A stretch of DNA of 64,000 nt. It comes from a virus. Its lineage: Duplodnaviria > Caudoviricetes. Shown here piece by piece: positions 9,827-54,800 of the stretch (within the stretch, counting starts at the first letter, position 1; every line of letters starts with the position of its first letter). Where the stretch lies: positions 2,386 to 66,385 of IMG/VR virus record IMGVR_UViG_3300033069_001536; one strand, given 5' to 3'. The notes below the pieces were generated by a model. The model did no database searches and was not told the DNA's origin. It saw nothing but the letters and a program-made list of their open reading frames with translations. The position numbers were made by a program, and so were the translations under genes.

Positions 9827-9888
9827 GGTGTTTGTGGTTTTTTACTGTTAGTGATTTAATGAGTTTCGTTTAACTGTAACCGGCAGAA

Positions 9889-10113
9889 CTACAGAGCTAA
9901 CTGTTGTAATTCATGATTCCAGAGGTGAGCTGTATTACCTGAGTCAAGTAATACCTGGCAGAGTGCTGTTTCATGAGTAGCCGGAACTACTTCCTGAACT
10001 TTTCCTTTCTGACCTATGATGGTCCGGTCTGCTGTGAGATCCTGAGAAGGTAGTACTTTTACTCTTGTTCCTTTACCGGGAATAATGGTTTCGTTTAAAT
10101 GGAGTTTTTTCAT
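9889..10113 (-). CDS. small SH3/KOW-like hypothetical protein
   Basis: GTRVKV..GQKGKV..CQVLLDSG beta-rich pattern. Confidence 0.5.
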   Translation of the reverse strand: MKKLHLNETIIPGKGTRVKVLPSQDLTADRTIIGQKGKVQEVVPATHETALCQVLLDSGNTAHLWNHELQQLAL

Positions 10114-10415
10114 GGGGTGGTGAGGTTAGTATTATTAACAAAAACTTCTTCGATTAGATTTTTTTCAGAAACGCCGGTTTGAAACTTGATAAGAGCATCA
10201 ATCGCTTCTTCCGGAGTGTTATGGTCTCTTGTCCAGTGTCCCGAAACATAAGCAGAGAATAGGGTTTTGCCAAATCCGTCCATTGAAACTTCTACTTTCC
10301 AATGGTTTCTCTCGTATTTTGTAGCAATATCTGCTACTGAATTAGCAAAATCACTAAGGGAGATGGTCTTTTTTCCGTAGGCAATTCTAAGTAAAAAGTT
10401 GAGTATCTTTTTCAT
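10110..10415 (-). CDS. hypothetical protein
   Basis: 101-aa ORF, ATGA-coupled. Confidence 0.55.
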   Translation of the reverse strand: MKKILNFLLRIAYGKKTISLSDFANSVADIATKYERNHWKVEVSMDGFGKTLFSAYVSGHWTRDHNTPEEAIDALIKFQTGVSEKNLIEEVFVNNTNLTTP

Positions 10416-10594
10416 TTCTTAAACTCCTCTCCATTAGGCAGGAATTCAATCTTAGAATGCCTCATTAGTTCGATAATGTAGTCTTCTGTTTCCAGTTCGA
10501 GTACGTGTTTTCGTTTAAATTCTGTGATTGCGAAGTTCTTGGCCTTGTGGCGAAGATCATCAATGGTGTGGAGCTTTATCCGGACGGTTCTCAT
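10412..10594 (-). CDS. hypothetical protein
   Basis: 60-aa ORF, ATGA-coupled. Confidence 0.55.
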   Translation of the reverse strand: MRTVRIKLHTIDDLRHKAKNFAITEFKRKHVLELETEDYIIELMRHSKIEFLPNGEEFKK

Positions 10595-10734
10595 TTGATA
10601 ATTTTTTTAAGTGTTACCGGATCAATAGTATAGCTGATACCGCTGGCTATTTTGGGGAGTGGGTTTCCGTGAATCTCTTTGGCCTTTCTTACGGCTGTGG
10701 CAAGATCGTGATTGGTGGTAAAGTTTGTGTTCAT
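10591..10734 (-). CDS. small hypothetical protein (47 aa)
   Basis: ATGA-coupled on both sides; not in ORF track. Confidence 0.5.
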   Translation of the reverse strand: MNTNFTTNHDLATAVRKAKEIHGNPLPKIASGISYTIDPVTLKKIIK

Positions 10735-10958
10735 GGTTGTTGGCTTATAATTTCGATTTCTTTTAGAATTAGCATGCGGTCGAGTTTGTTGTTGAGAATC
10801 CGTTCTTTTAACAATTTGGCAATTTCTAATCTTTCAGGGTTATAGAAGTTACGCAGATCGTCCAAAACTATTTCCATGACTTGACAATCTTTTTTTAATT
10901 GTTCAATTCGCTGCTCTCTTGATTCGATTTTGGTGTTTTTGATTTCTATTTCTTTCAC
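10731..10958 (-). CDS. coiled-coil hypothetical protein
   Basis: GTG start re-called just downstream of the TTAAACGAAAC motif. Confidence 0.5.
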   Translation of the reverse strand: MKEIEIKNTKIESREQRIEQLKKDCQVMEIVLDDLRNFYNPERLEIAKLLKERILNNKLDRMLILKEIEIISQQP

Positions 10959-10968
10959 GGTGTTTCGT

Positions 10969-11232
10969 TTAAAATAATGAGATTTGATTAGTGGGTGGCT
11001 GCAAAAGTGCTCCAATTCTTCTTTTAAAGCCCTTGAATGAAGCCGGAACCTTTTTCTCGGATCTTATCTCGTGTGCTGCTTGGCTTGCTCTTATCAGCTG
11101 CAAGCGGTGTTTTTCGGGCAGATCACCGGCTTCAATGCGTTCTTGTATCTCTTCCGGGTGTTCCAATGCCCAGGAAACGAGGCTAAGGTGCTTTCTTCGG
11201 GCTAATTCCCGGTAAGAATATTTTCTGTTCAT
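10969..11232 (-). CDS. hypothetical protein
   Basis: 87 aa ending QISLF (QL[S/D]LF-like sliding-clamp motif). Confidence 0.55.
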   Translation of the reverse strand: MNRKYSYRELARRKHLSLVSWALEHPEEIQERIEAGDLPEKHRLQLIRASQAAHEIRSEKKVPASFKGFKRRIGALLQPPTNQISLF

Positions 11233-11741
11233 AGCCCTGCGTTTCGTTTCAATTTCTCCAATTTGATTTCCAGTGCTGCAACATCTACTCTTTGCGCTGC
11301 TATCCGGTCATTCAGATAAGGTCTGAGGGTAGGTTTAATATCGGATATGGCGTCAATAAGAATTTCCAAGTGGTCCTCTGCCAGTTTCAACTTCTCCCGG
11401 ATTATGGGAATAGTTTGCTGTGCTACCTGCTTGCGTTTCTCTGTGCTGATCGGGTAGTCAATTTTCCGCAGGTCGTATGGCTGACCTCCCAGATCATAAT
11501 CAAAGGTATATCCGACTTGCTGAACTTTGGCTAAGATTCGTTCCATGTCGCGGTAATCGCCTCCATCCATCTCTCTTGCGTGCTTCTCAAGTATCTGTCT
11601 GACTTCGAAAGGGATTTGTTCCGGTGTTTCGAAAAGGTCTTTTGTAGGGGTTTCTGCTGTATTCATTGGGTGTACGGGTTTAGGTTGTGCAGGAAGTTTT
11701 GAAGCTCTGCTTTTTACTTCTTGGTAATTAGAGTTATTCAT
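11229..11741 (-). CDS. hypothetical protein
   Basis: start re-called at 11741; YTFDYDLGGQPYDLRKI segment. Confidence 0.55.
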   Translation of the reverse strand: MNNSNYQEVKSRASKLPAQPKPVHPMNTAETPTKDLFETPEQIPFEVRQILEKHAREMDGGDYRDMERILAKVQQVGYTFDYDLGGQPYDLRKIDYPISTEKRKQVAQQTIPIIREKLKLAEDHLEILIDAISDIKPTLRPYLNDRIAAQRVDVAALEIKLEKLKRNAGL

Positions 11742-11773
11742 TTGGTGTAAATTGTTTCGTTTAACTATTAGTA

Positions 11774-11953
11774 TTAAAATATCTCCCAAAGTATGTTAAC
11801 TCCATCTGATTCGACAATCTGCTGACCTTTGGTATAATCAACAATTTGTCTGGCTTGTTCTAAAGTGAACCAACTATCAAGGCCGGTGCCGGCATTTAAG
11901 AAAGTATGATCAGCGTTTCGTATCCGGTATTTGAAGGGATTGGATTTTTTCAT
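11774..11953 (-). CDS. small hypothetical protein (59 aa)
   Basis: ATGA-coupled to 11950..12450; not in ORF track. Confidence 0.5.
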   Translation of the reverse strand: MKKSNPFKYRIRNADHTFLNAGTGLDSWFTLEQARQIVDYTKGQQIVESDGVNILWEIF

Positions 11954-12450
11954 GCTTCGGTTTCGTTTACGGTAGTTAAGTCCTTTATCATTGGCAGCAC
12001 ATATTTATTCCAAGTCTCTTCAGGGAATTGCTTCCATGATCTGTAATGAACATTAAACGGTTCGCAGTCTGTTGACATCATGCCGGATCCGATTTCCTTA
12101 TAAAAGTTCTCCGTATTAGTAAAGGTCTTTGCCTTTATAATTAAATGAACATTGTTTTCTTGGGCTTTTTTGAGGAGTTTCTGTAAAAATGCCCTTGCTT
12201 GTTTTGCCTGTGCAAACCGTGTTTTGTGAATGTATTCGAAACTAAAATCATCTTTTATCCCTGAAAGTGTGGATGCACAATCAAGTCCAACATTAAAGGT
12301 ATTTCCGTTGGCGTTCTTTATTACTGCAACATTGGATATAAGTTTTCCGCAATTATTGCAGATGTCTCCACCATCTTCAAGGCTTTTATAAAATGATTCT
12401 ACTATTGAATAGGTAGTATCTATGGGCAAACTTCTTTGAATTACTTTCAT
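11950..12450 (-). CDS. Zn-binding hypothetical protein
   Basis: CNNCG..VGLDC motif; ATG re-called at 12450 downstream of the leader hairpin. Confidence 0.6.
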   Translation of the reverse strand: MKVIQRSLPIDTTYSIVESFYKSLEDGGDICNNCGKLISNVAVIKNANGNTFNVGLDCASTLSGIKDDFSFEYIHKTRFAQAKQARAFLQKLLKKAQENNVHLIIKAKTFTNTENFYKEIGSGMMSTDCEPFNVHYRSWKQFPEETWNKYVLPMIKDLTTVNETEA

Positions 12451-12470
12451 TTTGTCGTGGTCTGGTTTAA

Positions 12471-12487
12471 CGTTCTGCACCTGAACG
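12471..12487 (-). promoter_or_regulatory. conserved leader hairpin, copy 1
   Basis: minus strand CGTTC-AGGTGCA-GAACG, about 21 nt before ATG 12450. Confidence 0.7.
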
Positions 12488-12503
12488 GGTTTAAGGGTTT
12501 CGT

Positions 12504-13106
12504 TTAAAATAATGTAGGTTGAATTGAAATGCTTTGTGCTATTGGATTGTACTTTTCACCTGTTTTCAATGGAATGATCTGTAAAAAATCAAACATTTCT
12601 TTGAGGTTTTCAGCATCCTGGATATAGTTGTAGATTTTTGCTTCTGAAATATTGCCGGTGTATTTAATCGTTCTGGTTGTTTCTCTGAATACATAATATG
12701 GACCGTTGTCGGTTTGTTTTTTTAAGATGTACTTAACGGCGCTGCTCTTTAGATCCAATGAAGATAAAATGATTCTTCGGTATTCTTCTGAACGTCTGGC
12801 GGCCTGAATTGGGCAGTTATTGGAGTAGTCAGATAACCTCCATGAGATTTTTTTGTATTCCTCTGTATATTTTAATCGCTTTATGGCTGTGCTCCATTTA
12901 TTGGGTGTGCCTTCCTGAAACATTCCGTTTTCGTATTCTTTCAGAAGTTCAAAATTAAGCTCTGTTTCGCCTTTTTCCTGTAATATTTCGGTAAGGCTCT
13001 GGCAGTGCCATTCTTTGTATTCTCTTGGGCTTACGTTGTTACTTGCTGAGGTTAAAAAAACCTTGTTATCTCTAATACTAATTTTTTTGACGATCTCGTA
13101 TGACAT
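12504..13106 (-). CDS. hypothetical protein
   Basis: 200 aa ending QPTLF. Confidence 0.6.
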   Translation of the reverse strand: MSYEIVKKISIRDNKVFLTSASNNVSPREYKEWHCQSLTEILQEKGETELNFELLKEYENGMFQEGTPNKWSTAIKRLKYTEEYKKISWRLSDYSNNCPIQAARRSEEYRRIILSSLDLKSSAVKYILKKQTDNGPYYVFRETTRTIKYTGNISEAKIYNYIQDAENLKEMFDFLQIIPLKTGEKYNPIAQSISIQPTLF

Positions 13107-13127
13107 TTTGTGTGCGTCTGTTTTATG

Positions 13128-13142
13128 GTCCTGCGCCTGGAC
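13128..13142 (-). promoter_or_regulatory. conserved leader hairpin, copy 2
   Basis: minus strand GTCC-AGGCGCA-GGAC, 21 nt before ATG 13106. Confidence 0.7.
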
Positions 13143-13175
13143 GGTTTTAGATTGTTAGTATATTATTTTGAGGAT

Positions 13176-13202
13176 CCACAAACGCCACAAACGCCACAAA
13201 CA
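13176..13202. repeat. 3x 9-bp tandem repeat CCACAAAC(G/A)
   Basis: ccacaaacg ccacaaacg ccacaaaca, intergenic. Confidence 0.75.
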
Positions 13203-13372
13203 TGGGTTATTGTTGGTGTATCGCAATTACATTGCTTGCAATTTGAATAAGGCAGTTTTAATTTATTTGCAATTTTATAGACTGCTGCTGCTCCTCCTTT
13301 TTGGTAGGCGTTATAAAGTTTTTTATCAATTGCTGTCATTATTTTAGTTTTTTAGCTGGGTTTCGTTTAAAT

Positions 13373-13576
13373 TTATTGATTATCACTTATTAAAAGTGCT
13401 CCGATTGAATCGGGCGGAACTGTTCCGACAATTCTACTACCATCGTACACAGTAACACTATCAGAGTCAATAATCAACTGATACTCTGTTTCGCTTAACT
13501 TATTGCTACTGAGTAGAAAGGAGGAATAGAAGGAAATAAGGAATAAGACGATGGCGGTTTTTAGGAATTTCATCAT
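13373..13576 (-). CDS. small exported/membrane protein
   Basis: N-terminal signal-like hydrophobic segment. Confidence 0.55.
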   Translation of the reverse strand: MMKFLKTAIVLFLISFYSSFLLSSNKLSETEYQLIIDSDSVTVYDGSRIVGTVPPDSIGALLISDNQ

Positions 13577-15645
13577 ATTTGCTTGTTAAGTACTACAGTA
13601 ATAGTTTGAACACCAGTTGAACGAAAGGCAGAGAGGAAAGCGTCCGGATCATTCTTGTACATGTAGCCGTTAGATTCAACAAAGTTTCTGAAGTCCTGAA
13701 TCTTTGCCCGTTCTCCGTCTTTGTTTCCTGCCATTATTGCTACCAGTCTACCGCCTTCGTTTAAGAGACTGAATGCGTGCATAACATGGTCAATATCTTG
13801 TAAGTTTTCGAAAGGCGGATTCATAACAATACGATCGTATTTTCCTGAATGCTGTAGAAAGTCCTCGTTAACAGTATCAAAGCCTTTAATCTCCAGCACT
13901 TCTGCAAGTGAGTTGCATTGCTCAATTACTGTTAATTTATTCTCCGGGTGCGCTTCTCTGATCGACTGGGCTATGTGTCCCAATCCTGCGGAGGGTTCTA
14001 AAACTGTGTTTCCTTCTACTATTTCCGCTTCTTCAACTATTTTGCTGGCAAGGTCTTCAGGTGTTGGGAAAAATCCGTCTATTTTTTTACCTATAAAAGA
14101 TCTTTCGAGTTGTTTTAGTTTCGCTTCCTGTACTTGCTCCGGTGTTTTATCTGCTGTTAGTGAGATCATCTCACGAATAGCCGCCCGAAGTGCCGGAAGT
14201 GTATCTAAATCAAGTCTTTTTAATCTTTTGATCTCTGCCAGGCTGTTTTTATATCGCTCTGCACTCCATTTATCCCAAAGTACAGAGGTCTGACAAAATA
14301 CTGTTTCGTAGTCTTCTAACAAGCTCCATGAGTCAATAGTAAGAGTCTCTTTACTTCCCAATTTGCTTAAAATCCGATTGGAAGCTAATTTTTTGCCGTC
14401 TGTCTCCCTGCAAATGTGTAAATGTTTTAATACATTGCTTGCATAGATCACCGGATAAGGAATAGAAACGTAAATGGCGGTTTCTTCTGTTACTTCGTAG
14501 TTCTCCGATCTGATATTTTTCTCCCTCATGTGCTTGTATTTGGCTGCGCTTAATACATGTTTGAGGGTCTCCAGTTCTGTAATAGTTGACAATTTATTGA
14601 GGTGGTTAATTGTTCCGGCTTCGATTCCATTTGCAATATTTATGAGGGTTTTACCAAATGCAATTGAATTAGAGGCTTTTTGCTCTGCGCTTGCTGCCTG
14701 TGCTGCTCTTCTGTGTGTGTTGTCTTTGCGGTCCCGGTTTAACTCCTCTTGCCCGTCTTCAACTAATTTAGTGCCTTTTTCTCTTAAAATCTCGGCTCTG
14801 GTCTGTTCTTTGTGTTCAATGCGTGCTTCGACTTCCTCCTTATTACTGCCTCCGTCTATGAACTTTTCAGCACTTGATTTGTCAAGGAAAGTAAAACCGG
14901 CTATGGCTCCGCCTTTATTGTAACTGCTGTAATAGCCTCCAAATAACTTTGCACGCTGCGACAAACTTTTAAAAACATCTGATTCAACACGATTATTCAA
15001 TGAGCATACAAATAAATCGTGGCCTTTCTGGGTGTGTTTCGTTTCGTTTAATGTGAATTCTTCCCCTACCGATTGAACATTTTTGATCTGTTGTTGTTCT
15101 TTCTGGGCGTGGTGTGTGATCCCTGCAAGCTCATCATATCTTTTTAACTGTTCGGCTGTTAACTTTGCCTCACCAAAAATTCGAATAAAACTTTTGAATT
15201 CTTCTAAGGTCTCCGGATTGGTTAACATTTTCTTTCTGGCTGCAATCGCTGCTTTTTTCTCCTCTGCCCACTTTAAAAAATCCGCTTCTGTGACTGAATT
15301 CAAAACTCTTTGTTGTGCCTGATCTCCTGTTTCTGCTCCTTCTCCGTGTAAAAAATAGCCAACGGTTTTACCGACAAGGAAATAAGATTCTAGGCCGTCC
15401 AAAATATCGTCTATAAAATCCGCTTTTTTAGTAGAATACGTATAATTGAGCATCTTTTTAAGATCAACAACTTTTAACAGGTTTAACTCTGCTGTATAGG
15501 CTGCTTTGTTCTCTTTGAAGGTGTTAAAAAGTACATGATAATTGCAAAAATCGCCTTCGTGCATAGAAAATAAGGCCTTTTTGAAGTCTTGAAGATTCAA
15601 GTTTTTAAATTCTGTAGTTGATTGTAGGTTTAATTCTGCTTGCAT
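13573..15645 (-). CDS. N6-adenine DNA methyltransferase with long helical N-terminal region
   Basis: C-terminal FFPTP, VLEPSAGLGHI (motif I), IVMNPPF (motif IV), GGRLVAIM. Confidence 0.85.
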   Translation of the reverse strand: MQAELNLQSTTEFKNLNLQDFKKALFSMHEGDFCNYHVLFNTFKENKAAYTAELNLLKVVDLKKMLNYTYSTKKADFIDDILDGLESYFLVGKTVGYFLHGEGAETGDQAQQRVLNSVTEADFLKWAEEKKAAIAARKKMLTNPETLEEFKSFIRIFGEAKLTAEQLKRYDELAGITHHAQKEQQQIKNVQSVGEEFTLNETKHTQKGHDLFVCSLNNRVESDVFKSLSQRAKLFGGYYSSYNKGGAIAGFTFLDKSSAEKFIDGGSNKEEVEARIEHKEQTRAEILREKGTKLVEDGQEELNRDRKDNTHRRAAQAASAEQKASNSIAFGKTLINIANGIEAGTINHLNKLSTITELETLKHVLSAAKYKHMREKNIRSENYEVTEETAIYVSIPYPVIYASNVLKHLHICRETDGKKLASNRILSKLGSKETLTIDSWSLLEDYETVFCQTSVLWDKWSAERYKNSLAEIKRLKRLDLDTLPALRAAIREMISLTADKTPEQVQEAKLKQLERSFIGKKIDGFFPTPEDLASKIVEEAEIVEGNTVLEPSAGLGHIAQSIREAHPENKLTVIEQCNSLAEVLEIKGFDTVNEDFLQHSGKYDRIVMNPPFENLQDIDHVMHAFSLLNEGGRLVAIMAGNKDGERAKIQDFRNFVESNGYMYKNDPDAFLSAFRSTGVQTITVVLNKQI

Positions 15646-15667
15646 TTTTTATCCGCCTGGCTGTCAT

Positions 15668-15682
15668 CGGCTGCGGCTGCCG
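15668..15682 (-). promoter_or_regulatory. conserved leader hairpin, copy 3
   Basis: minus strand CGGC-AGCCGCA-GCCG, 22 nt before ATG 15645. Confidence 0.7.
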
Positions 15683-15701
15683 GGTTTTAAGTTGTTATAA
15701 A

Positions 15702-15941
15702 TTATGCGTTTTTTAATTGTCCTTTTCGGTATTCTTTCCCAGCGTGCTCAGGTAAAACAATTTGAAGTCCGGTAGTGCTGTCCATTATTGGCGCTAAGCA
15801 TGTGCCGTTATCAAAAATCATTTTGTAGGCTTGTCCCGGCTTTGATCCGTTCACTCCCATTGCAAAATATACCCCTTCCATATTTGGTTGTTCTTGCTTG
15901 CCTTTCTCGCTGTGCTCAAAATAGCATTTAGTGTTGTACAT
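15702..15941 (-). CDS. hypothetical protein
   Basis: 79-aa ORF in leftward run. Confidence 0.55.
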   Translation of the reverse strand: MYNTKCYFEHSEKGKQEQPNMEGVYFAMGVNGSKPGQAYKMIFDNGTCLAPIMDSTTGLQIVLPEHAGKEYRKGQLKNA

Positions 15942-15945
15942 GATT

Positions 15946-16143
15946 TTAGGCTTTATCGGTTAGAACTATTTTAAACTCTCTCCACCATGAGCCTATATTA
16001 TGCGGCTCTCCTTGATCGTTAACGGTTTGGCAGTCCATTAGTCCGGCTTCGGTCTTTACGTCCTTATTTACTTGATATTGACGGCCTTTAGTAAAACATT
16101 TACCTTTATTGTAAAGGTCTTTTTTTGCTTCTATTATTGTCAT
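15946..16143 (-). CDS. hypothetical protein
   Basis: 65-aa ORF preceded by leader hairpin. Confidence 0.6.
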   Translation of the reverse strand: MTIIEAKKDLYNKGKCFTKGRQYQVNKDVKTEAGLMDCQTVNDQGEPHNIGSWWREFKIVLTDKA

Positions 16144-16160
16144 TTGATCCCGTCTTTTTA

Positions 16161-16175
16161 CTTCTGCGGCTGAAG
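16161..16175 (-). promoter_or_regulatory. conserved leader hairpin, copy 4
   Basis: minus strand CTTC-AGCCGCA-GAAG, 17 nt before ATG 16143. Confidence 0.7.
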
Positions 16176-16203
16176 GGTTTTAGATTAAGTGAGTAGATAA
16201 AGA

Positions 16204-16506
16204 TTAGTTAATAGTTAATTGAAGTAAGCGCTTACATTGCTTGTCTTGTTCTTCCTTGCTGATTGAAACAGTTCTATTTATCCATGTTCCACCTTCCGGT
16301 ATGTGACAAGGCCAGCCAACAGTATTATTTATATGATTCCAAGCCAATGACATTGCCCAATCTTCTGTGATCTCCTGAACTCCAAGCCCGTAACGTCTGC
16401 AATATAGCTTACCGTCCGAACCTTTATAAACTTTGCAGTCATCCGCTTTGACATTTACCCAAGTGGTAAAAAGATAGTGTTGTGTAGGATTGATTGAAGT
16501 GTTCAT
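16204..16506 (-). CDS. hypothetical protein
   Basis: 100-aa ORF preceded by leader hairpin. Confidence 0.6.
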   Translation of the reverse strand: MNTSINPTQHYLFTTWVNVKADDCKVYKGSDGKLYCRRYGLGVQEITEDWAMSLAWNHINNTVGWPCHIPEGGTWINRTVSISKEEQDKQCKRLLQLTIN

Positions 16507-16525
16507 TGTTTGCGTGCCTGTTATA

Positions 16526-16540
16526 ACTCTGCGCCTGAGT
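16526..16540 (-). promoter_or_regulatory. conserved leader hairpin, copy 5
   Basis: minus strand ACTC-AGGCGCA-GAGT, 19 nt before ATG 16506. Confidence 0.7.
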
Positions 16541-16548
16541 GTTAAGTA

Positions 16549-16812
16549 TTAATTAATAGTAAGATACTGCTTGTAAGTATTTCCAGTCTTTGCAGAAGTC
16601 CGGACGATAAAAAACTTTCCTTTACCTGATTTGAAGATAGGATAAACAACTCCTTTTTTATCTTCAAAGGTTTTGCCGGTGTTCACTGCTTTAACAGTCT
16701 GTGAACTGTCAGAACTGATTGAATAGTGACCTTTAGAGTTGATCTTAGCGAGTTGCTGCGCTTGGCTGCTGACTGCAATAAATAAGAATAGGATTGTGAA
16801 TAGTGTTTTCAT
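16549..16812 (-). CDS. small secreted protein with signal peptide
   Basis: MKTLFTILFLFIAVSSQA|QQ SPI-type signal; start re-called at 16812. Confidence 0.65.
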   Translation of the reverse strand: MKTLFTILFLFIAVSSQAQQLAKINSKGHYSISSDSSQTVKAVNTGKTFEDKKGVVYPIFKSGKGKFFIVRTSAKTGNTYKQYLTIN

Positions 16813-16850: not shown

Positions 16851-16880
16851 TACGACAACATACGACAACATACGACACTA
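16851..16880. repeat. 3x 10-bp tandem repeat in putative early promoter
   Basis: tacgacaaca tacgacaaca tacgacacta. Confidence 0.75.
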
Positions 16881-17149
16881 TAAGTAAGATTTTATTGGCT
16901 ACAATATCAATCAGTTAGCAAAAATATTCTACTTCATCAATATACAAACGCCCAAAATCACGTCAGATTTTGCTCACCCTGCAACATGATTCAATAAAAG
17001 TCATTCAATGAAACCGGCCCGAACCAAGTCCGCAGAACCAACAAAACAAACTAAACATTAAATAAGATATCCTTAGTTAACTATAAGAGCTAAAGAGTAA
17101 ATAAAGAGACAAGACAAATAAAAAAAAAGAATACAAGCAAAGAAGTAAA

Positions 17150-17632: not shown

Positions 17633-17842
17633 AAATTTTATATTGATTTCTATTAATATCACACAAAAATACAAACCGTTTGCATCCGATGTGAAAAAAG
17701 TTGTCTCCATGCGGTGGCGCACCCTGACTCACTGCCTGATTATCAATCAGTTATATTTTCACCTATTTTTACTATTTCCGGATCATTCAGAGTCAACCAA
17801 TACTAATTAGAATCAGTCTAAACAAGGCGAATAATACTACCT

Positions 17843-47111: not shown

Positions 47112-48805
47112 TGGCAGCAGGAATAGGAGAAGCAATCGGTTTACAGGATAAGCCCAATTTATTTGCAGGACAAGCAGCGGGAGCACTTGCCAGACTATCT
47201 GCGGAAGAATCTGCAAGAGAAGCAGCACGAAGAAAAGCTCAGGAAAAAGATGAAGCAGATACCAAAAAGGTAATTTCCGATGCGGATATTTACTCTAAGA
47301 ATACTACGTGGCATAAGATGTATGCTCCGGCAGTTCAGCGGGAAATGGCTGATTTTGCCAATGACTATATTAAATACAAGTCAGAAAATCCGAATGCTCC
47401 TAGAAATGGCGCCTATGCAGTAACCAGATTACAGGAACTTCAGAGCAGGTTAAATCGTCTCAAGCAAAATAACGATGCTTTTAAAGACTTTGAAAAAGGT
47501 GTGCAGGAAGGAAAGTACTATGCAGATCCGAATTTGTTCAAGAAAATATACGAGACCGATTTTACAAAGAAATTGTACCGCGATGAAAATGGAAGAGTAG
47601 TCAGTGGAGATTGGGCGGCATTAAAGCCGGATGAACGCTACGGCGCCATGATCGATGCCAATGGAGATTTTATTTCCAATCCGGTCAAGAAATTTGATTT
47701 TCAGAATAAGATTGGTGGGTTTATGAATAACCAAAATGTCTGGACAGAAAAATCACTGATCACTCAAAGACAGAAAAAAGGTGTTCCGGGAATGTTCGAA
47801 GATATTTCTGTAAAAGAAGTCGATCCATTACAACGGGAATCTTTTGTCGATGAAATGGTGAGTAATCCGGATGCAGTTCGTGCATGGCAAATTGAGAACA
47901 AAGATCGGATTGATGGAGAACTTGCTAAAAATCCTTCGTTAAAAGATCCACGAAATTATTCTCAGTTCGTACAGGAAACGATGGCGGAAGATGTGAGATT
48001 AAAAACTTCCGGAAGGAAAGAAGATCGTGTAGGAAGACACATTGCTCCTCCGAAACCACCGAAGGCAGCAAAACCAAAAGGGCCGTCACTGGATGCAAGT
48101 TTTGATGATCTGAAAGACACCATTACAGAAACGGATACATTCAGTGCTCCGATGGGTAAACAGGTATCTGAGAAGGAAGACCTTGAAAAACTTCGTCAGC
48201 AAGTCAAGAAAGATGAGATTGATGCGAAAGAGTATGCTTTGAGTGAAACAGATAAGAAAGCGGCTGCTAAACGGAAAAAGCAATTGGAAGATCAGGAAAA
48301 GGCGTATGGAAAAGAAGGCGCTACTGACGTTAAATACAGTTATCCCACTACATTAAAAACTGCAAATCAGCCGACTGTAGTTAATTTAGGTCCGGATGTA
48401 ATTGACTTAAAAACAAATACAGCTCCGAATGAATCCAATCAATTGAAGTTTATTCCTCGTAAAATAGGAATGCTGAAGGTGAAAGGTAAGTGGGGAGCTT
48501 ATGTATTTGGAGAAAGTTACGACAAAGCAGCAGCAACTGATTCTGATGGAAATGTTCGTAGTGATCAAACTACTTCCGGCGATTTTGCTATTCCATTAAG
48601 CAAAGTGGAAGCGTTCTTAAATCAACAAGGAACTCCTACTAAATGGACAAGTGAAGCATTGCAAAAATTGAAAGGTGCTTCTCCAAAAGAAACAAAATCT
48701 GAAGACAAGGCTTATACTCGTGAAGAGTTAAAAGCGATGAGTCCTAATTATACAGATGCAGTAATTGATGCGGCAGTAGCCGCAGGTAAAATCAAATTAA
48801 AATAA
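47111..48805 (+). CDS. internal virion/ejection protein 2
   Basis: 564 aa, helical and charged, typical position. Confidence 0.55.
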   Translation: MAAGIGEAIGLQDKPNLFAGQAAGALARLSAEESAREAARRKAQEKDEADTKKVISDADIYSKNTTWHKMYAPAVQREMADFANDYIKYKSENPNAPRNGAYAVTRLQELQSRLNRLKQNNDAFKDFEKGVQEGKYYADPNLFKKIYETDFTKKLYRDENGRVVSGDWAALKPDERYGAMIDANGDFISNPVKKFDFQNKIGGFMNNQNVWTEKSLITQRQKKGVPGMFEDISVKEVDPLQRESFVDEMVSNPDAVRAWQIENKDRIDGELAKNPSLKDPRNYSQFVQETMAEDVRLKTSGRKEDRVGRHIAPPKPPKAAKPKGPSLDASFDDLKDTITETDTFSAPMGKQVSEKEDLEKLRQQVKKDEIDAKEYALSETDKKAAAKRKKQLEDQEKAYGKEGATDVKYSYPTTLKTANQPTVVNLGPDVIDLKTNTAPNESNQLKFIPRKIGMLKVKGKWGAYVFGESYDKAAATDSDGNVRSDQTTSGDFAIPLSKVEAFLNQQGTPTKWTSEALQKLKGASPKETKSEDKAYTREELKAMSPNYTDAVIDAAVAAGKIKLK

Positions 48806-51800
48806 TGGCTGGCAACGATCCACTTGGGATTTTAGGTGAAACTGCAAGCGGTGATCCATTGGGATTGCTGGATGCTCCTGTACAAGAAAAAGTTACAGAA
48901 ACCGTTACAGAAACTCCATCTGAAACCTCTATTCCTACTGTTACCATGGATGCCAATGATGGACTTGTTCCTGAAGGTAGCGGTGAATTCGATATTAAAA
49001 ATCCTACTAAAGCTACCGGTGTAATTAATATTCCAAAAGGAGGCGTGACCTCTGTTGCTCTTCAGGTAGAACAGGATAAATTGGCGAATAACCAAAGTGA
49101 GTATGTAAAGAATGCCAAGAACGAAATTCGGAAACTAGCAATCAATACAGATTTCTCTGCTCCACCGGTAGATCCGATGGAAGGTCAGCAGCAGCAATTG
49201 ATAGAAGGTGGAACTCCGGATGCAGCAGTAGCTCCAAAAGTTACGGATTACGAACAGGCTCTCAATTACATTATCAATCCTGAGAACACTCCCGAAAATC
49301 AGATACAGTTATCAGATACCGACAAGGAAGATCTTGCTAAGTATGCTCAGGTAGCAGCACAAAGTGCACCGGCAATCCAGCAGTTATCAAAACAACTGGA
49401 ACAAAATCCTGATGATGTAAAGACATTGAATGATCTTGCCGATGTGTTATCGCACACCGATGATACTGCTCAGGCTCTCTCATTATACAGTAAAGCGAAT
49501 GCTATTCAAGAGAACGGTCAGTCATTGATGGGACTTGGTAATACGTTTCTGAAAGCGGGAGATAATAAGAATGCAAGAAATGCTTTTGAAGATGCTTACT
49601 ATAAAGACAAAAATCCTGATGCGTTAGTAAAAGCAGCGTATGCGGAGTCAGCTTTAGGAAATACGGCGGCTTCATTGGAAATGATTGACAATATCAAAGA
49701 AGAGTTTCCAAACTACTCTTATGGTTATGCGTTATCGGCTTACAACAACGAAAAGTTAGGCGATAAATCTGCTGCTGCAGTAGATAATGCTACTTACGAA
49801 ATCCTCCGTCAGCAGGAAATGTTGCCCGAATCCGTAAATGCTGATGACCCGAACTCTGATTATGCCAAAGAGCGTGCATCTCAGGCAGCAAGATTGGGTG
49901 CAATACATGATGCTATTGCTGCACCGATCAATTTCTTTGGGGAGATGGAGATGGGGACGATCGAAGGCGGTATTCATGGATTAAAGAATTTCGTCGAGGG
50001 CGGAGCGGGATTGCAAATGGGTGGAGACAAGATTGGCTCTGTGTTAAATATCTTGAATGGTGCAGCAGAGACGGCGTTCTCAGGAGCAATGGCAATGGCA
50101 CCGGTAACAAATGCCGGATTTCACATGCTTCCTGAATCCGTGAATAAAGTACTGATGCAGCCACTTAATGTGGTTAGCGGCTTATCTGACAAGGAAATAG
50201 CTCAGATGAGTGGCAATAAGCAAGCATTACTAGCTCTTGGAAATACGCTCGGATCAATTGCGGTGCTCGGTGCCGTCCATAAAGGCAAAGGTGGTTTTTC
50301 AGAAAAAGAGAATGAAGCGATCTTAAATATTGTCAAAGGTGAATCCATCGATTCAGAAGGTCTTTCCTTAAAAGGCATTGTTGATAAAGCAAAGAAAGTA
50401 CTGGAAGATTCCAAACTCACCGACTATCAGCAAGCAGAACAGGTATGGAAGAGCATCCCGGAAGATCTGTCTATCCAGGATAAAATGACTGCTATTCCTG
50501 ATCTTATCAAACGTGAACGCTTACAGGAAGAAATGGCAAAAGCATCTCCTGCTTTTAAAAACTACTTTAAAGAGAAGATCGATAAGGTCGATGAAGATAT
50601 CAATGCTAAACTTTCTATCAATTTAGGATTAAAAGAACAGGCAGCAGAGAAGACAAAATCGGCGGAAGCGCCACCTAAAACCATAACCAATGAAACAGTC
50701 AAAACCAGTAAAGTCGAAGAAGGTAGTGGTAGTAAGCAAGCCGAAGTCATCCGGAAAGATGAAGTCGGGCAAGAAGTGCTGATACCAGAGTACAGTGAAA
50801 AGCTAAAAGATGTTTCACCTGAAACCAAGGTTGTGGACCTTCCTGATGGAATATCAGTGGAGTTCAATGGCGAGAAGGGAACGATTGGGAGATCGGAGAC
50901 GGGTGAAACACTTTTTATTAATGCAGAAGGAAAAGAAACAATTGTCGGTGGTGGTGGAGATGTGTCTACACTAGCAGAAAAGGGAATTTCCCGTACTGAA
51001 GGAACTTATTCAGATAAGCGTGGAGATTATTATGTGAAGGATGGGCGGGTATTTGAAGTTACCAAAGATGGGCTGAAGCCTGTTTACGAAGGAGAGAAAG
51101 CCAATGTAGAACGGAAAGAAGCGATTATTCGTAAAGCTCTTAATCCGGAGAAGCCGAAAGAGAAAATTGTTGAACCGGTAGTTGAAGAGAAACCAATTGA
51201 AGTTAAACTTGAAGAAATAAAAACTGAACCGGTAGCAGAAACAGTAAAAGTAGCAGATGCTCCTAGTTCCAGACCGATAGAAAAATTTGAATCGGAAGTA
51301 GCTTTTGAAGAAGCGGGATCAGGTCATAATGTTTTATTTACCGATAAAGACGGAAAGAAAAGTGTAGTAGGGAAAGTATTTGGAACAGAAGGAAAAACAG
51401 GAGCAGAATTTGATTCGTGGGTAAAACCACAGATTGAAGCAATCCATTACAAAGAAGTAGTAAAAGCTGTTGAGCGAGGAGATGTTGTTCCAAAAGAAGT
51501 TCTTGACCATTATTTATCTTCTAAAATAGAAGGTGATTACAATGGAATGTTAGCTGAAGCAATTAAATCGGTAAAAGAGAATGGTCCGAAAAAAGAAATT
51601 TTCAGCGAACAGGAGATTGGTGAAGTAATGGACAAAAGAGCTGAGGAGCTTTCTCAAATGAAACGAACGAAGGATTATGTGTTTCAGCTCATTCACGATA
51701 ATTTCGATGGCATCAGTTTAGCAGACTGGACTCGTTACGGAGATGCCAACTGGCTGAAAGGGAAAGAAGGTCGGGCATTTAAAAAGAAATACATTAAGGA

Positions 51801-54800
51801 AAATGGACTGACTAACTTAGAGGAGAATGTAGTTAAAATGTCCGAAGAGGCGAATATTGATATTCAGCCGCAGGATGTAATTGATTACATTATGGACCGG
51901 GAGATGAATCCTAAGAAGTATGACGGAAGGTTAAAACAATGGAACGATGCAGCGAGTATTCCTAAAAAAGACGTACCTTCATTATTAAGTGGTGATGATG
52001 CAATGGTATTAAGTATTGCAGAATCTAACCGTGGATTGGGAATGACCGATCTGGAAGTGGATACAATCAAAAGATACGTAGAAAGCAAAGCAAAAAATGA
52101 AGCAAGAGCGAAAAATACCAAGCCAAGATCAGCAGAAAGCGCACCAAAAGGTGAGGGAACTGTTGCAAAGAGCGAACGAGTGGGACGAAAGCCAGGAGAA
52201 AAAGCTCAGAAAAAGAAGGATGAAGCTAAAAGTGTAAAGGCTGAAGAGAATAAGTATGTCGGAGCGGAAAAGAAAATTACTAAAATCTTTGATACACTTC
52301 GAGCAAAACTGATTGCTGATCTTCCGGAAGGAACAAAGAAAAGTGGTGTTGGAGCGAAAGAAGTGCTGGACGCTGCGGAGAAAATTGTGAAGGCTGCGCT
52401 GAAAGCCGGGGAAGCGATTGAAAAAGCTATTCAGAAAGGCAAGGATTACATTAATGAGAATTGGAAGAAGGAGTTTGGTGATATTGAAAATATTATTGGG
52501 AAAGAATCAGAGGTTAAGCCAAAAGGATTAAACCAAGATCAATTAAAAATTGCCGAGTCTAAAGATTTTAAAGAATGGTTTGGTGATTGGGAGAAAAAAG
52601 AAGGAAGTGTAAGCAAAGTCATAAATAAAGATGGAGAGCCATTAGTTGTATATCACGGCTCTCCAAAAATCTTCAGCGACTTTAATTCAAACAAATTAGG
52701 AGAATATACTGGTGCAGATTTATCAAAGGAAGGGTTTTTCTTTTCTGATAAAAAGAGTGTATCAGAAACATACAGGAAAGCGGCAGTTTTAGATAGTCCT
52801 AATTTAAGCAAATTGAATAATGCTTTAGGAAAGCTGACTGATAAAAAATTAATAAAGCTACTAAATAAAGTATTTGGTTATGGAGAAAGCCAATTTGAGG
52901 GGACATCTAAAAAAGATTTAATAGAAGAAATTTTTAGGGATGTCGAAATTGATTCAGAGGGGGTTTATTCGGATAGGCGAAAATATATTGAGGGTGTTTC
53001 TGAATTCTTAAAAAAAGAAGGTATTGAGTTTAATCCGTATAAAGATATAGGTAGCACGAATAGTGTTTTTTTAAATATGAAAAAACCATTCACTCTTGAT
53101 GCGAAGGGTGAAGATGTTCAACAATTAGAATTATCTGATATATTTAAGAAAATCAAGAAAGAGGGACACGATGGAGTTATTATAAAAAACGCTTATGATG
53201 CAGTAGTTTTTGAAGAAAAAGGGTTTGATAATATAAAGTCTAATTTATATATTATTTTTAAGCCAGACCAGGCGAAGATTATTAATAGTGCAAATCGTGT
53301 TTTCGAAAAAGATAACCTATCAAAATATTATGGTGCAGAGAAGTCGGTTAAAGCGGCATTTGAAAAGCTCCGTGAAAAACTAATTCCCAGGTTACCGGAA
53401 GGTACAGAGAAAATGGGTCTTGGCATGGAAGACTTACTCAATGCGGCAGAGAAAGTGATCATCGGTGCAATTCGTGCAGGAGAGAAGATCGATGTAGCAA
53501 TCAGCAAAGGTCTTGATCACTTAAAAGAAAAGTGGGATGATTCCTTTGGTGAATTCCCAGAGAAAGAACTGCGTGATATTTTAAAGGAAAACGGAGAAAT
53601 TCAACTCTCTCACGAAAAAACAGATGCTTTAAGGGAAAAATATGGAATGGAAGAACGGGAGATCAACGATCCTGTTTCTACTGAAAAGACTCGTGCTGAA
53701 GCACAAAAGATAATTAAAAAAGGTTTTGATGTTATAAAACTTGCTAATGAGGTTATAAAAAAAGAGCGAACAATCACTCCGGTAGAACGTGCAATCTTGG
53801 CTGAACGTGTTGCTATTTTAGATAAAGAACTTTTGGAAGGCGATACCACTTCTCCTGAGTATGCTAAGAAAATGGAGGAGCAGAATAAATTGATCAAAGC
53901 CTCTGAAATTTCCGCTTCTCAGGCGGGTTCTTCATTAGGATCAATTGCACATATTAAAGTTGTAGCAGATGAATCTTTATCCGGATATTTTCAGGAACAG
54001 CGAAGAGTCAACAAAGAAGGTGCACTTACTGAAAAGCAGACTGCTACCAACAAGAAGGAGTTTGAAGAAATTACGAAAGTAAAAGAAGCCTACGAGAAAC
54101 GAATTGCTAAAATTCAGGAAGAGAATAACCGGTTAAAAGCCGAAAAGCAACTTGAAAAACTTGCTAAGAAAACTTCCAAGCGAACAGCCAAAGAAAAGCT
54201 GGATGAGGATTTTGATCTACTTGCAAAAGAATTCTCTTCCATTGCAAAGAACACACTGAATGCCGGTATCAATCCGGAACTGATTCCGGTTGTCTTAAAA
54301 ATGGTGAAAAACCGTGTAGAGAAAGGTGTGATCACACTCTCAGAAGTAGTGGATGCAGTGCATGAGAAAGTAGGCGAATTCGGTATTTCCAAAGAGGATA
54401 TCATTGCTGCCATTGCCGGAAAGCATGGTCCGGAAAGAACGCGGTCAGATGCAGCCAAGAATTTATATGAGTTAAAGCAGGAAGCCAAGTTAGTACAGAA
54501 GCTAACAGATCTTCAGAATGGGAAGGAGCCAAGTTCAGAAAGAGGGAAAGTTCAGAAAAATGCCCGTTTGGAAGAACTACGCAAACAGATCAAAGAACAT
54601 GATTTGACTAAAACGGCGGAATACAAAAAGAGACTCGATGCTCAGATTGCAGAAGTGGAAAGAGAGCTTGCTACCGGTGATTTTGCAGTAGAAGAAAAGA
54701 AAGAGCCGTTAAAACTTGATAAAGAGACACTGGAACTTCAGGACAAGTACATGCAATTAAGTATGGAACGGGAAGCTCGTCTTTTGAGAGAAGAATATGC

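Follow-up and report, generated by a model that had tools for sequence, protein, structure and literature searches.

A predicted, covariation-supported pseudoknot motif in the early-gene leaders of a narrow clade of uncultured phages

In the regulons of the T4 proteins RegA and RegB, many early phage mRNAs are targeted by a single factor via a short element in the initiation region, and the T4 gene 32 operator begins with an H-type pseudoknot located upstream of an A/U-rich start region (PMC3014915). The Escherichia coli tisB standby site and the pseudoknots obtained with ribosomal protein S1 by systematic evolution of ligands by exponential enrichment likewise consist of an H-type pseudoknot upstream of a start, and the tisB pseudoknot helps the 30S subunit and protein S1 to capture mRNA without a normal Shine-Dalgarno (SD) interaction (PMC7708055). 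Here, we describe an element that resembles these systems in a 64-kb stretch of DNA (the window; positions 2,386 to 66,385 of IMG/VR record IMGVR_UViG_3300033069_001536), which is part of a 66,385-bp single-contig virus record of an uncultured phage. The element, a predicted H-type pseudoknot, occurs in five copies directly before start codons of early genes. The sites of RegA and RegB are sequence motifs without structure, whereas the five copies here are defined by covarying helices, and gene 32 has one autoregulatory pseudoknot, which lies farther from its AUG than the elements in the window. The tisB pseudoknot is a single case about 100 nucleotides (nt) from a sequestered ribosome-binding site (PMC7708055), whereas the elements here abut the start region, are repeated within an operon, and have conserved loop bases; their binding by protein S1 is putative.

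In its dimensions, the element is also like the minimal pseudoknots of the preQ1-I and guanidine-III riboswitches and of the frameshift site of the luteovirus beet western yellows virus. These pseudoknots have a first helix of 3 to 5 bp, a 2-nt first loop (L1), and a second helix of 3 bp, and their A-rich third loop (L3; 6 to 12 nt) can line the minor groove of the first helix. In preQ1-I and guanidine-III, the 3' strand of the second helix is also at the ribosome-binding position. The elements of the window differ from all of these in matching none by sequence or model, in having a 2-nt CA junction, and in occurring in multiple copies before unrelated genes. With preQ1-I they share only the H-type topology and an A-rich L3; we found neither a match to RF00522 nor an association with queuosine or preQ1 genes. 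Unlike the luteovirus frameshift signal, they have no upstream slippery site, and the frame relation between the neighboring genes is inconsistent.

A sequence-only reading of the window had proposed five minus-strand hairpins with perfectly paired stems of differing sequence and a conserved 7-nt loop, and we recovered all of them, at 16540-16526, 16175-16161, 15682-15668, 13142-13128, and 12487-12471. Their stems are ACTC/GAGT, CTTC/GAAG, CGGC/GCCG, GTCC/GGAC, and (C)GTTC/GAAC(G), respectively. The loop conforms to AGSYGCA in every copy, the closing C-G pair that had also been pointed out is nearly invariant, and the distance from the end of the hairpin to the ATG is indeed 17 to 22 nt at all five sites. 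The sequence CAGSYGCAG occurs eight times in the window compared with 0.99 expected, a count reached in 0 of 100 shuffles, and the other three matches are in coding sequence and stemless. The five copies all lie between genes of the leftward arm, on its coding strand and within 4.1 kb of each other. A covariance model of the element, the kind of check that had been suggested, was run over the 64 kb with filters off and found only these five there (47.7 to 57.4 bits; next best match, 13.9 bits); it also recovered copies in relatives. The original description of the hairpins thus holds in every particular.

The conserved loop appears to be engaged in a second helix. Loop bases 3 to 5 (N-Y-G) are perfectly complementary, in antiparallel orientation, to a triplet (C-R-N) located 8 to 12 nt before the A of the ATG, and in all five window copies the 3' end of this second helix is separated from the ATG by 5 to 9 nt of A-rich spacer. 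The hallmarks of the H-type class are thus present, in that there are two helices, the loop pairs downstream, and both helices covary, and we predict that the element is an H-type pseudoknot and not a simple hairpin. Its layout consists of helix 1 (3 to 5 bp), L1 (AG), helix 2 (3 bp, with 4 in some copies), L2 (CA), and L3 (7 to 12 nt), which is A-rich and mostly has AGA at its end; the whole leader is about 45 nt. The helices vary in sequence, and AG, CA, the A-rich L3, and a UAAAACC flank are constant. This UAAAACC-like flank is the A-rich tract that had been noted upstream of the hairpins. The AG(A/G)C box within the "(CA)G(A/G)C element" described downstream of them is also real, but it is not a free-standing element, since its AGA or AGG belongs to L3 and its C opens helix 2, so that the box carries the helix 2 triplet. 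Minimum free energy folds of the spacers contained no helix longer than helix 1 or helix 2.

All five leaders are on the minus strand. Leader 1 (16504-16548; 48.9 bits) precedes the 100-amino-acid (aa) gene g2 and begins with the flank UACUUAAC (16548-16541), followed by helix 1 (16540-16537 with 16529-16526) around the loop AGGCGCA (16536-16530), in which GCG (16534-16532) would pair with CGC (16514-16512) to form helix 2 ahead of the ATG at 16506-16504. Leader 2 (16141-16182; 47.8 bits), before the 65-aa gene g3, has the flank UAAAACC (16182-16176), helix 1 of CTTC (16175-16172) with GAAG (16164-16161), the loop AGCCGCA (16171-16165), and helix 2 of CCG (16169-16167) with CGG (16152-16150), with the ATG at 16143-16141. 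In leader 3 (15643-15689; 47.7 bits), before the 690-aa methyltransferase-domain gene g5, UAAAACC (15689-15683) is followed by CGGC (15682-15679) with GCCG (15671-15668) around AGCCGCA (15678-15672), and helix 2 of CCG (15676-15674) with CGG (15655-15653) is extendable to 4 bp via C15673-G15656; the ATG is at 15645-15643. Leader 4 (13104-13149), before the 200-aa gene g8, scored highest at 57.4 bits and consists of UAAAACC (13149-13143), GTCC (13142-13139) with GGAC (13131-13128), AGGCGCA (13138-13132), and GCG (13136-13134) with CGC (13116-13114), with the ATG at 13106-13104. Leader 5 (12448-12494; 49.4 bits), before the 166-aa gene g9, has the flank UUAAACC (12494-12488), a 5-bp helix 1 of CGTTC (12487-12483) with GAACG (12475-12471), the loop AGGUGCA (12482-12476), and helix 2 of GUG (12480-12478) with CAC (12459-12457), with the ATG at 12450-12448.

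Starting from homologues of the g5 and g8 proteins, we identified six metagenomic contigs, each from a different sample (L082, which is the same contig as L085, and L083, L245, L246, L252, and L255), with protein identities to the window of 67 to 97%. These contigs contain 18 more copies of the element, bringing the total to 23 with 20 distinct sequences. In a MAFFT alignment of 19 sequences, helix 1 was 100% paired with changes on both sides at four of four pairs. Helix 2 was 74% paired in fixed columns, with two pairs changed on both sides, compared with 27 to 52% for slid controls. When the 0 to 2 nt of register play observed among copies was allowed, helix 2 was perfect in 16 of the 20 distinct elements, whereas other loop registers gave 5, 2, 0, and 0. 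Permutation of loops among elements never reached 16 in 100,000 trials (p<1e-5), shuffled spacers had a mean of 1.1 perfect second helices, and an earlier test of helix 2 on an 11-copy subset gave p=2e-5.

Because the copies are related by descent, these counts overstate the number of independent events, and the covariation argument rests mainly on compensations at orthologous sites and on the presence of five types of helix 2 pairing (GCG/CGC, CCG/CGG, GUG/CAC, CUG/CAG, and ACG/CGU). The loop types CUG/CAG and ACG/CGU are new in the relatives, and each arrives with its matching triplet. At the site before g5, the window has CGGC with CCG/CGG, whereas L083 has CGC with GCG/CGC; in L082 and L246, the stem at this site is CGGU..ACCG, with the closing pair changed from C-G to U-A. 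At the site before g8, GTCC with GCG/CGC in the window is replaced by CGTTC with ACG/CGU in L252. Elements that share a stem but precede different genes also show compensated changes in helix 2, with CTTC stems combined with either CCG/CGG or GCG/CGC and CTC stems with either CUG/CAG or GUG/CAC. Compensatory covariation, which had been claimed within this one genome, was thus upheld and extends to both helices and to orthologous sites.

We also noticed an alternative pairing at the g8 site (13098-13118, minus strand), where the 3' strand of helix 2 has the region of the start codon as a second possible partner (GACG/UGUC). In L252 (83-105), the corresponding helix has 5 bp (GACGU/AUGUC), gaining strength from the C-to-U change that also compensates helix 2. 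This alternative could constitute a two-state switch at that one gene. A hairpin sequestering the AUG through the 3' strand of helix 2 was rejected as a general feature, as it was seen only at the g8 and g5 sites.

Searches against Rfam 15 with 15 kb and with a 441-nt stretch containing two copies returned no match on the elements at E<=10, and in L252 the only overlapping match was to DUF805 RNA at chance level (18 bits relative to a gathering threshold of 51; E=5). That the element had not been recognized as a named motif therefore agrees with the Rfam covariance search, and no named family fits. A model search of 98 other related loci (0.95 Mb) produced no convincing match, and a regular-expression search of about 160 loci with homologues of g5 at <=47% identity found no copy of the motif. 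Phages bearing a g8 at most 58% identical to that of the window (L247-L251 and L253) lack the element and have plain A/T-rich spacers. The element is restricted to one narrow phage clade, and its sequence features argue that it is a real and new pseudoknot motif in phage early-gene leaders, supported by covariation. Two broader scans added no copies. When IMG/VR was scanned for TAAAACCNNNCAGSYGCAG, each of the 81 single matches lacked a paired stem and is attributable to chance, and a generic scan of 1.9 Mb for this pseudoknot geometry gave 1.9 chance matches per 10 kb and no other locus with a shared loop. As a separate observation, four of the pseudoknot-less relatives (L247, L248, L250, and L251; g8 at 56 to 58% identity) have AAGACA or variants of it (TAAGACA and CAAGACAA) directly before many ATGs; this box recalls the AGAC box ahead of helix 2 in the pseudoknot clade.

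The window encodes a portal protein, a crAss-type muzzle-domain protein (PF25731), a protein with a weak match to crAss capsid protein, and a 1746-aa protein with SprB repeats, and the muzzle domain marks the phage as distantly crAss-like. The window has promoter-like -7 boxes (TAnnTTTG) of Bacteroidota type, and its start codons are preceded by A-rich spacers; on these grounds we treat the phage as one with a Bacteroidota host, which is probably correct. The portal protein and g8 had no relatives among GenBank phages, single-protein searches of IMG/VR with either found nothing, and a scan of GTDB with g8 yielded no informative host.

A -7 box of this type, TATTTTTG (16919-16926, minus strand), heads the leftward operon that holds all five elements, and TTG motifs are found at a -33-like distance. 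Upstream of the elements, the minus strand has just two intergenic TAnnTTTG boxes, one at 16926, preceding the first small gene g1 (ATG at 16812), and one at 17671, preceding an XRE-like gene. None of the five intercistronic spacers contains such a box. Since the elements lie between cistrons and downstream of the 16926 box, they should be transcribed within one polycistronic mRNA. They occupy the g1/g2, g2/g3, g4/g5, g7/g8, and g8/g9 junctions, and the g3/g4 (5-nt gap) and g5/g6 (ATGA overlap) junctions are without an element. As judged from this gene arrangement, the element sits only at junctions at which translational coupling is not available to the downstream cistron and fresh initiation is needed. 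Furthermore, the stem follows the upstream stop codon at a variable distance (8 to 28 nt), whereas the spacing between helix 2 and the start codon is tight (5 to 9 nt).

The early arm is mosaic when the window (12448-16812) is compared with L245, L246, L082, and L083. Genes g2, g7, and g9 are missing from the 94%-identical L245, L246 and L082 have other small genes at their positions, and the accessory genes of the relatives differ (332 aa in L245; 66, 192, and 77 aa in L246; 136 aa in L082). Several accessory genes, but not all, have their own copy of the element immediately ahead of them (g2, g9, the 66-aa and 192-aa genes of L246, and the 136-aa gene of L082), and elements with the same stem (CTTC, CGTTC, GTC, or CTC) precede different genes in different contigs. 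The elements thus mark module boundaries, where the clade has gained and lost small early genes.

Two other repeated sequences in this region are described here in their own right. Three tandem 10-nt repeats (TAGTGTCGTA, TGTTGTCGTA, TGTTGTCGTA; 16851-16880, minus strand) lie between the -7 box and the ATG of g1 and are candidates for an operator of the neighboring XRE-like protein or for an element of the 5' untranslated region. A second strand-specific motif, (TT)AAACGAAAC, is distributed over 9863-15051 on the minus strand, where AAACGAAAC occurs 10 times compared with 0 on the plus strand; the exact sequence TTAAACGAAAC has seven occurrences. Most copies of AAACGAAAC are 3 to 37 nt before the starts of later leftward genes, with a few inside coding sequence, and one is immediately upstream of the fifth pseudoknot, where TTAAACGAAAC (12507-12497) lies just ahead of leader 5. 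This motif is kept in strand-specific form in L245 (10 versus 0), L246, L252, L255, and L082, and it may represent a second class of intercistronic operator or enhancer.

That the element folds in RNA, and what it does there, we infer from sequence. Our preferred reading, to which we assign a probability of about one half, is that the pseudoknot leader is a translation-initiation control element read by one factor. Each leader would fold into a compact H-type pseudoknot within the polycistronic early mRNA, and a single reader would recognize its shape and a few of its bases, as suggested by the constancy of the unpaired bases and the UAAAACC flank while the helices vary freely. The reader may be the host 30S subunit with protein S1, for which the pseudoknot would serve in standby or recruitment, or a phage protein, either a repressor or an activator in the style of T4 RegA, RegB, and gp32, for which it would be an operator; once bound, it would set the frequency of initiation at the downstream early cistron. 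We favor control of initiation because helix 2 is at the position of an SD duplex and because the element is found only at uncoupled junctions. Bacteroidota ribosomes ignore SD sequences, with structure and upstream bases tuning initiation instead (PMC6847099, PMC7797042), which further counts toward such a role. In addition, protein S1 has nanomolar affinity for H-type pseudoknots, and the tisB standby site requires its pseudoknot (PMC7708055). More generally, the register with the start codon, the position within an operon behind a host-type promoter, and the lack of a detectable phage RNA polymerase favor a role at the level of translation or RNA and speak against an ssDNA hairpin promoter or a boxB-like site. 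Of the interpretation first offered for these sequences, we retain a structure-defined, covarying cis element common to several early genes, while the simple hairpin is replaced by a pseudoknot and the candidate mechanisms can no longer be regarded as equally likely.

Several observations weigh against this reading. Helix 1 alone is weak (-1.1 to -6.1 kcal/mol) and helix 2 is just 3 bp, so that a partner is probably required for folding. Since every pair is of the Watson-Crick type, equivalent helices could arise in the opposite strand or in DNA, and the choice of strand rests solely on gene context. Helix 2 is imperfect in 4 of the 20 distinct elements; these are the GTC-stem site before g3 in three relatives, where AGC is found in place of the CGC needed and two of three pairs are kept, and the element L252-722, with a single terminal mismatch. 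Pfam and PHROGs searches of the early open reading frames (ORFs) gave no informative family match and no candidate for the reader protein, and an AlphaFold model of g3, a small protein found in every contig covering its position, was unreliable (pLDDT 54) and too poor for searching. Homologues of RegA, RegB, or gp32 and an N-like gene were likewise not found among the early ORFs. The genes behind the leaders are otherwise unrelated ORFs of unknown function, together with the methyltransferase-domain protein g5.

The main rival explanation, which we regard as unlikely, is that the element is a site of RNA processing or stability, at which a host or phage endoribonuclease would read the pseudoknot and UAAAACC flank and cut the early mRNA into monocistronic units, each with a structured 5' leader of defined extent. 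The intercistronic location of five elements within 4 kb of one operon, the conserved single-stranded flank adjoining a structured element, and the tendency of several (but not all) accessory genes to bring their own copy would all suit such a site. RNase III cuts the T7 early operon at five sites, but these are extended duplexes of about 20 bp. The spacers here contain no extended duplex, and helices of 3 to 5 bp and 3 bp are far too short for RNase III. Moreover, the register of the element follows the start codon and not the end of the upstream gene, and Pfam and PHROGs identified no nuclease family in the early ORFs.

A bolder form of initiation control, in which the pseudoknot is a cis stand-in for the SD/anti-SD duplex, seems to us doubtful. 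Helix 2, as a mini-helix 5 to 9 nt before the AUG, would occupy classical SD spacing and, with help from protein S1, would dock on the Bacteroidota 30S subunit in its platform chamber. This chamber is empty in Bacteroidota, as the 3' tail of 16S rRNA is sequestered by bS21, bS18, and bS6.

We consider it improbable that the element is a ligand-sensing riboswitch of the minimal-pseudoknot type, in which a small molecule stacked at the junction of the two helices would touch AG, CA, and L3, stabilize helix 2, and alter access to the start region. The size and architecture of the element resemble those of the preQ1-I and guanidine-III aptamers, the conserved bases are exactly those of the junction and loops, and helix 2 is too weak to be stable alone. 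However, no Rfam riboswitch model matched even at E<=10 on the 441-nt stretch, helix 1 can be only 3 bp, and the five copies precede unrelated genes of unknown function, a setting that no known riboswitch regulon shares.

An equally improbable explanation operates at the level of DNA, where a hairpin extruded in single-stranded or supercoiled DNA would act as a promoter read by a phage-specific polymerase or sigma factor, as in phage N4, making every early gene a transcription unit of its own. N4 hairpin promoters and the boxB hairpin of the lambda nut sites are, like the elements here, short early-region hairpins with variable stems, conserved loops, and one phage reader. A structure-conserved, sequence-variable hairpin at a fixed short distance before each gene in a distantly crAss-like phage invites the N4 comparison, and crAss-like early promoters are still undefined (10.1101/2020.03.07.982082). 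The sequence-only reading had listed such a promoter among its candidates, but a host-type promoter already heads the operon, and we detected no RNA polymerase in the large virion proteins or ORFs tested. N4 hairpins have stems of 5 to 7 bp and 3-nt loops with a central purine and need a virion RNA polymerase, whereas the stems here are 3 to 5 bp and the loop is always 7 nt. Neither N4 hairpins nor boxB has a helix between the loop and downstream sequence, and covariation of this kind would have no role in known hairpin promoters. Phages of the crAss-like type encode a virion RNA polymerase at the genome position that is occupied in the window by a 2436-aa protein (48805-56115, plus strand). 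This protein has TPR repeats at about residues 185 to 310 and an ART-PolyVal ADP-ribosyltransferase domain from about residue 1274 onward, it falls nearest to the Atlas clusters of LPD38/LPD39 polyvalent phage proteins, and it looks like a polyvalent ART/TPR cargo protein. Pfam and PHROGs gave no RNA polymerase signal in the 2436-aa, 1746-aa, 1488-aa, or 564-aa virion proteins, and neither did PDB-sequence or ESM-Atlas searches with the 2436-aa protein, which also lacks a DFDxD motif, although very divergent polymerases could escape such searches.

We give little credence to the absence of any regulatory function, in which case the elements would be boundary sequences kept through recombinational shuffling of cassettes. 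The PeSL cassettes of T4-type phages, which combine an early promoter with a terminator-like stem-loop, are a precedent, and like the elements here they are repeated stem-loops flanking small variable early genes and marking boundaries of gain and loss (PMC2839356, PMC4122927). Accessory genes differ between the relatives, several with their own copy, and the same stems occur before different genes, as shuffling would produce. Unlike PeSL, however, the elements here lack a host-type promoter box, have no sense-strand U-tract, and covary as a pseudoknot. Recombination needs sequence identity and not maintained pairing, and both helices show compensation; we therefore regard shuffling as a by-product and not the function, because the compensatory changes indicate selection on the fold.

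Processive antitermination of the boxA-boxB kind, another of the original candidates, has hardly any claim left: a UAAAACC flank and nascent hairpin loading a factor onto RNA polymerase would match the order of a linear box followed by a short conserved-loop hairpin, but the GNRA-like pentaloop of boxB occurs once per operon, whereas here five copies with 7-nt loops are tied to start codons within 4.1 kb in place of one promoter-proximal site, the loop is engaged in helix 2, and the sense strand has no evident terminators from one copy to the next. Three further ideas were dropped outright. Stimulation of stop-codon read-through or frameshifting is incompatible with the inconsistent frame to the next ATG and the intervening in-frame stops; base pairing between 16S helix 45 and the AGCCGCA loop is at odds with the variable loop bases, which covary with the mRNA triplet and do not stay fixed; and an antisense terminator, suggested by the antisense hairpin followed by GGUUUUA, would have stems of 3 to 4 bp that are too weak, with the count of terminator-like sequences equal to the shuffled expectation. 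One copy passed a lax terminator scan (15667-15683, plus strand), and the sense strand has no U-tract of the kind found in intrinsic terminators, whose GC-rich stems have at least 5 bp.

If a role in translation is true, the pseudoknot leader would represent a new class of phage regulatory RNA outside Rfam. How Bacteroidota ribosomes choose start sites without SD pairing is a question that the element could probe, as it is compact, present in multiple copies, covarying in both helices, and at the SD-equivalent position of early cistrons. At 45 nt, it is portable to reporters, can be mutated in a compensatory manner, and is usable as bait for its reader. Phage mRNAs compete for host ribosomes from the first minute of infection, and if the pseudoknot does stand in for the SD duplex, it would give the early mRNAs of these phages a private, high-affinity entry to the ribosome.

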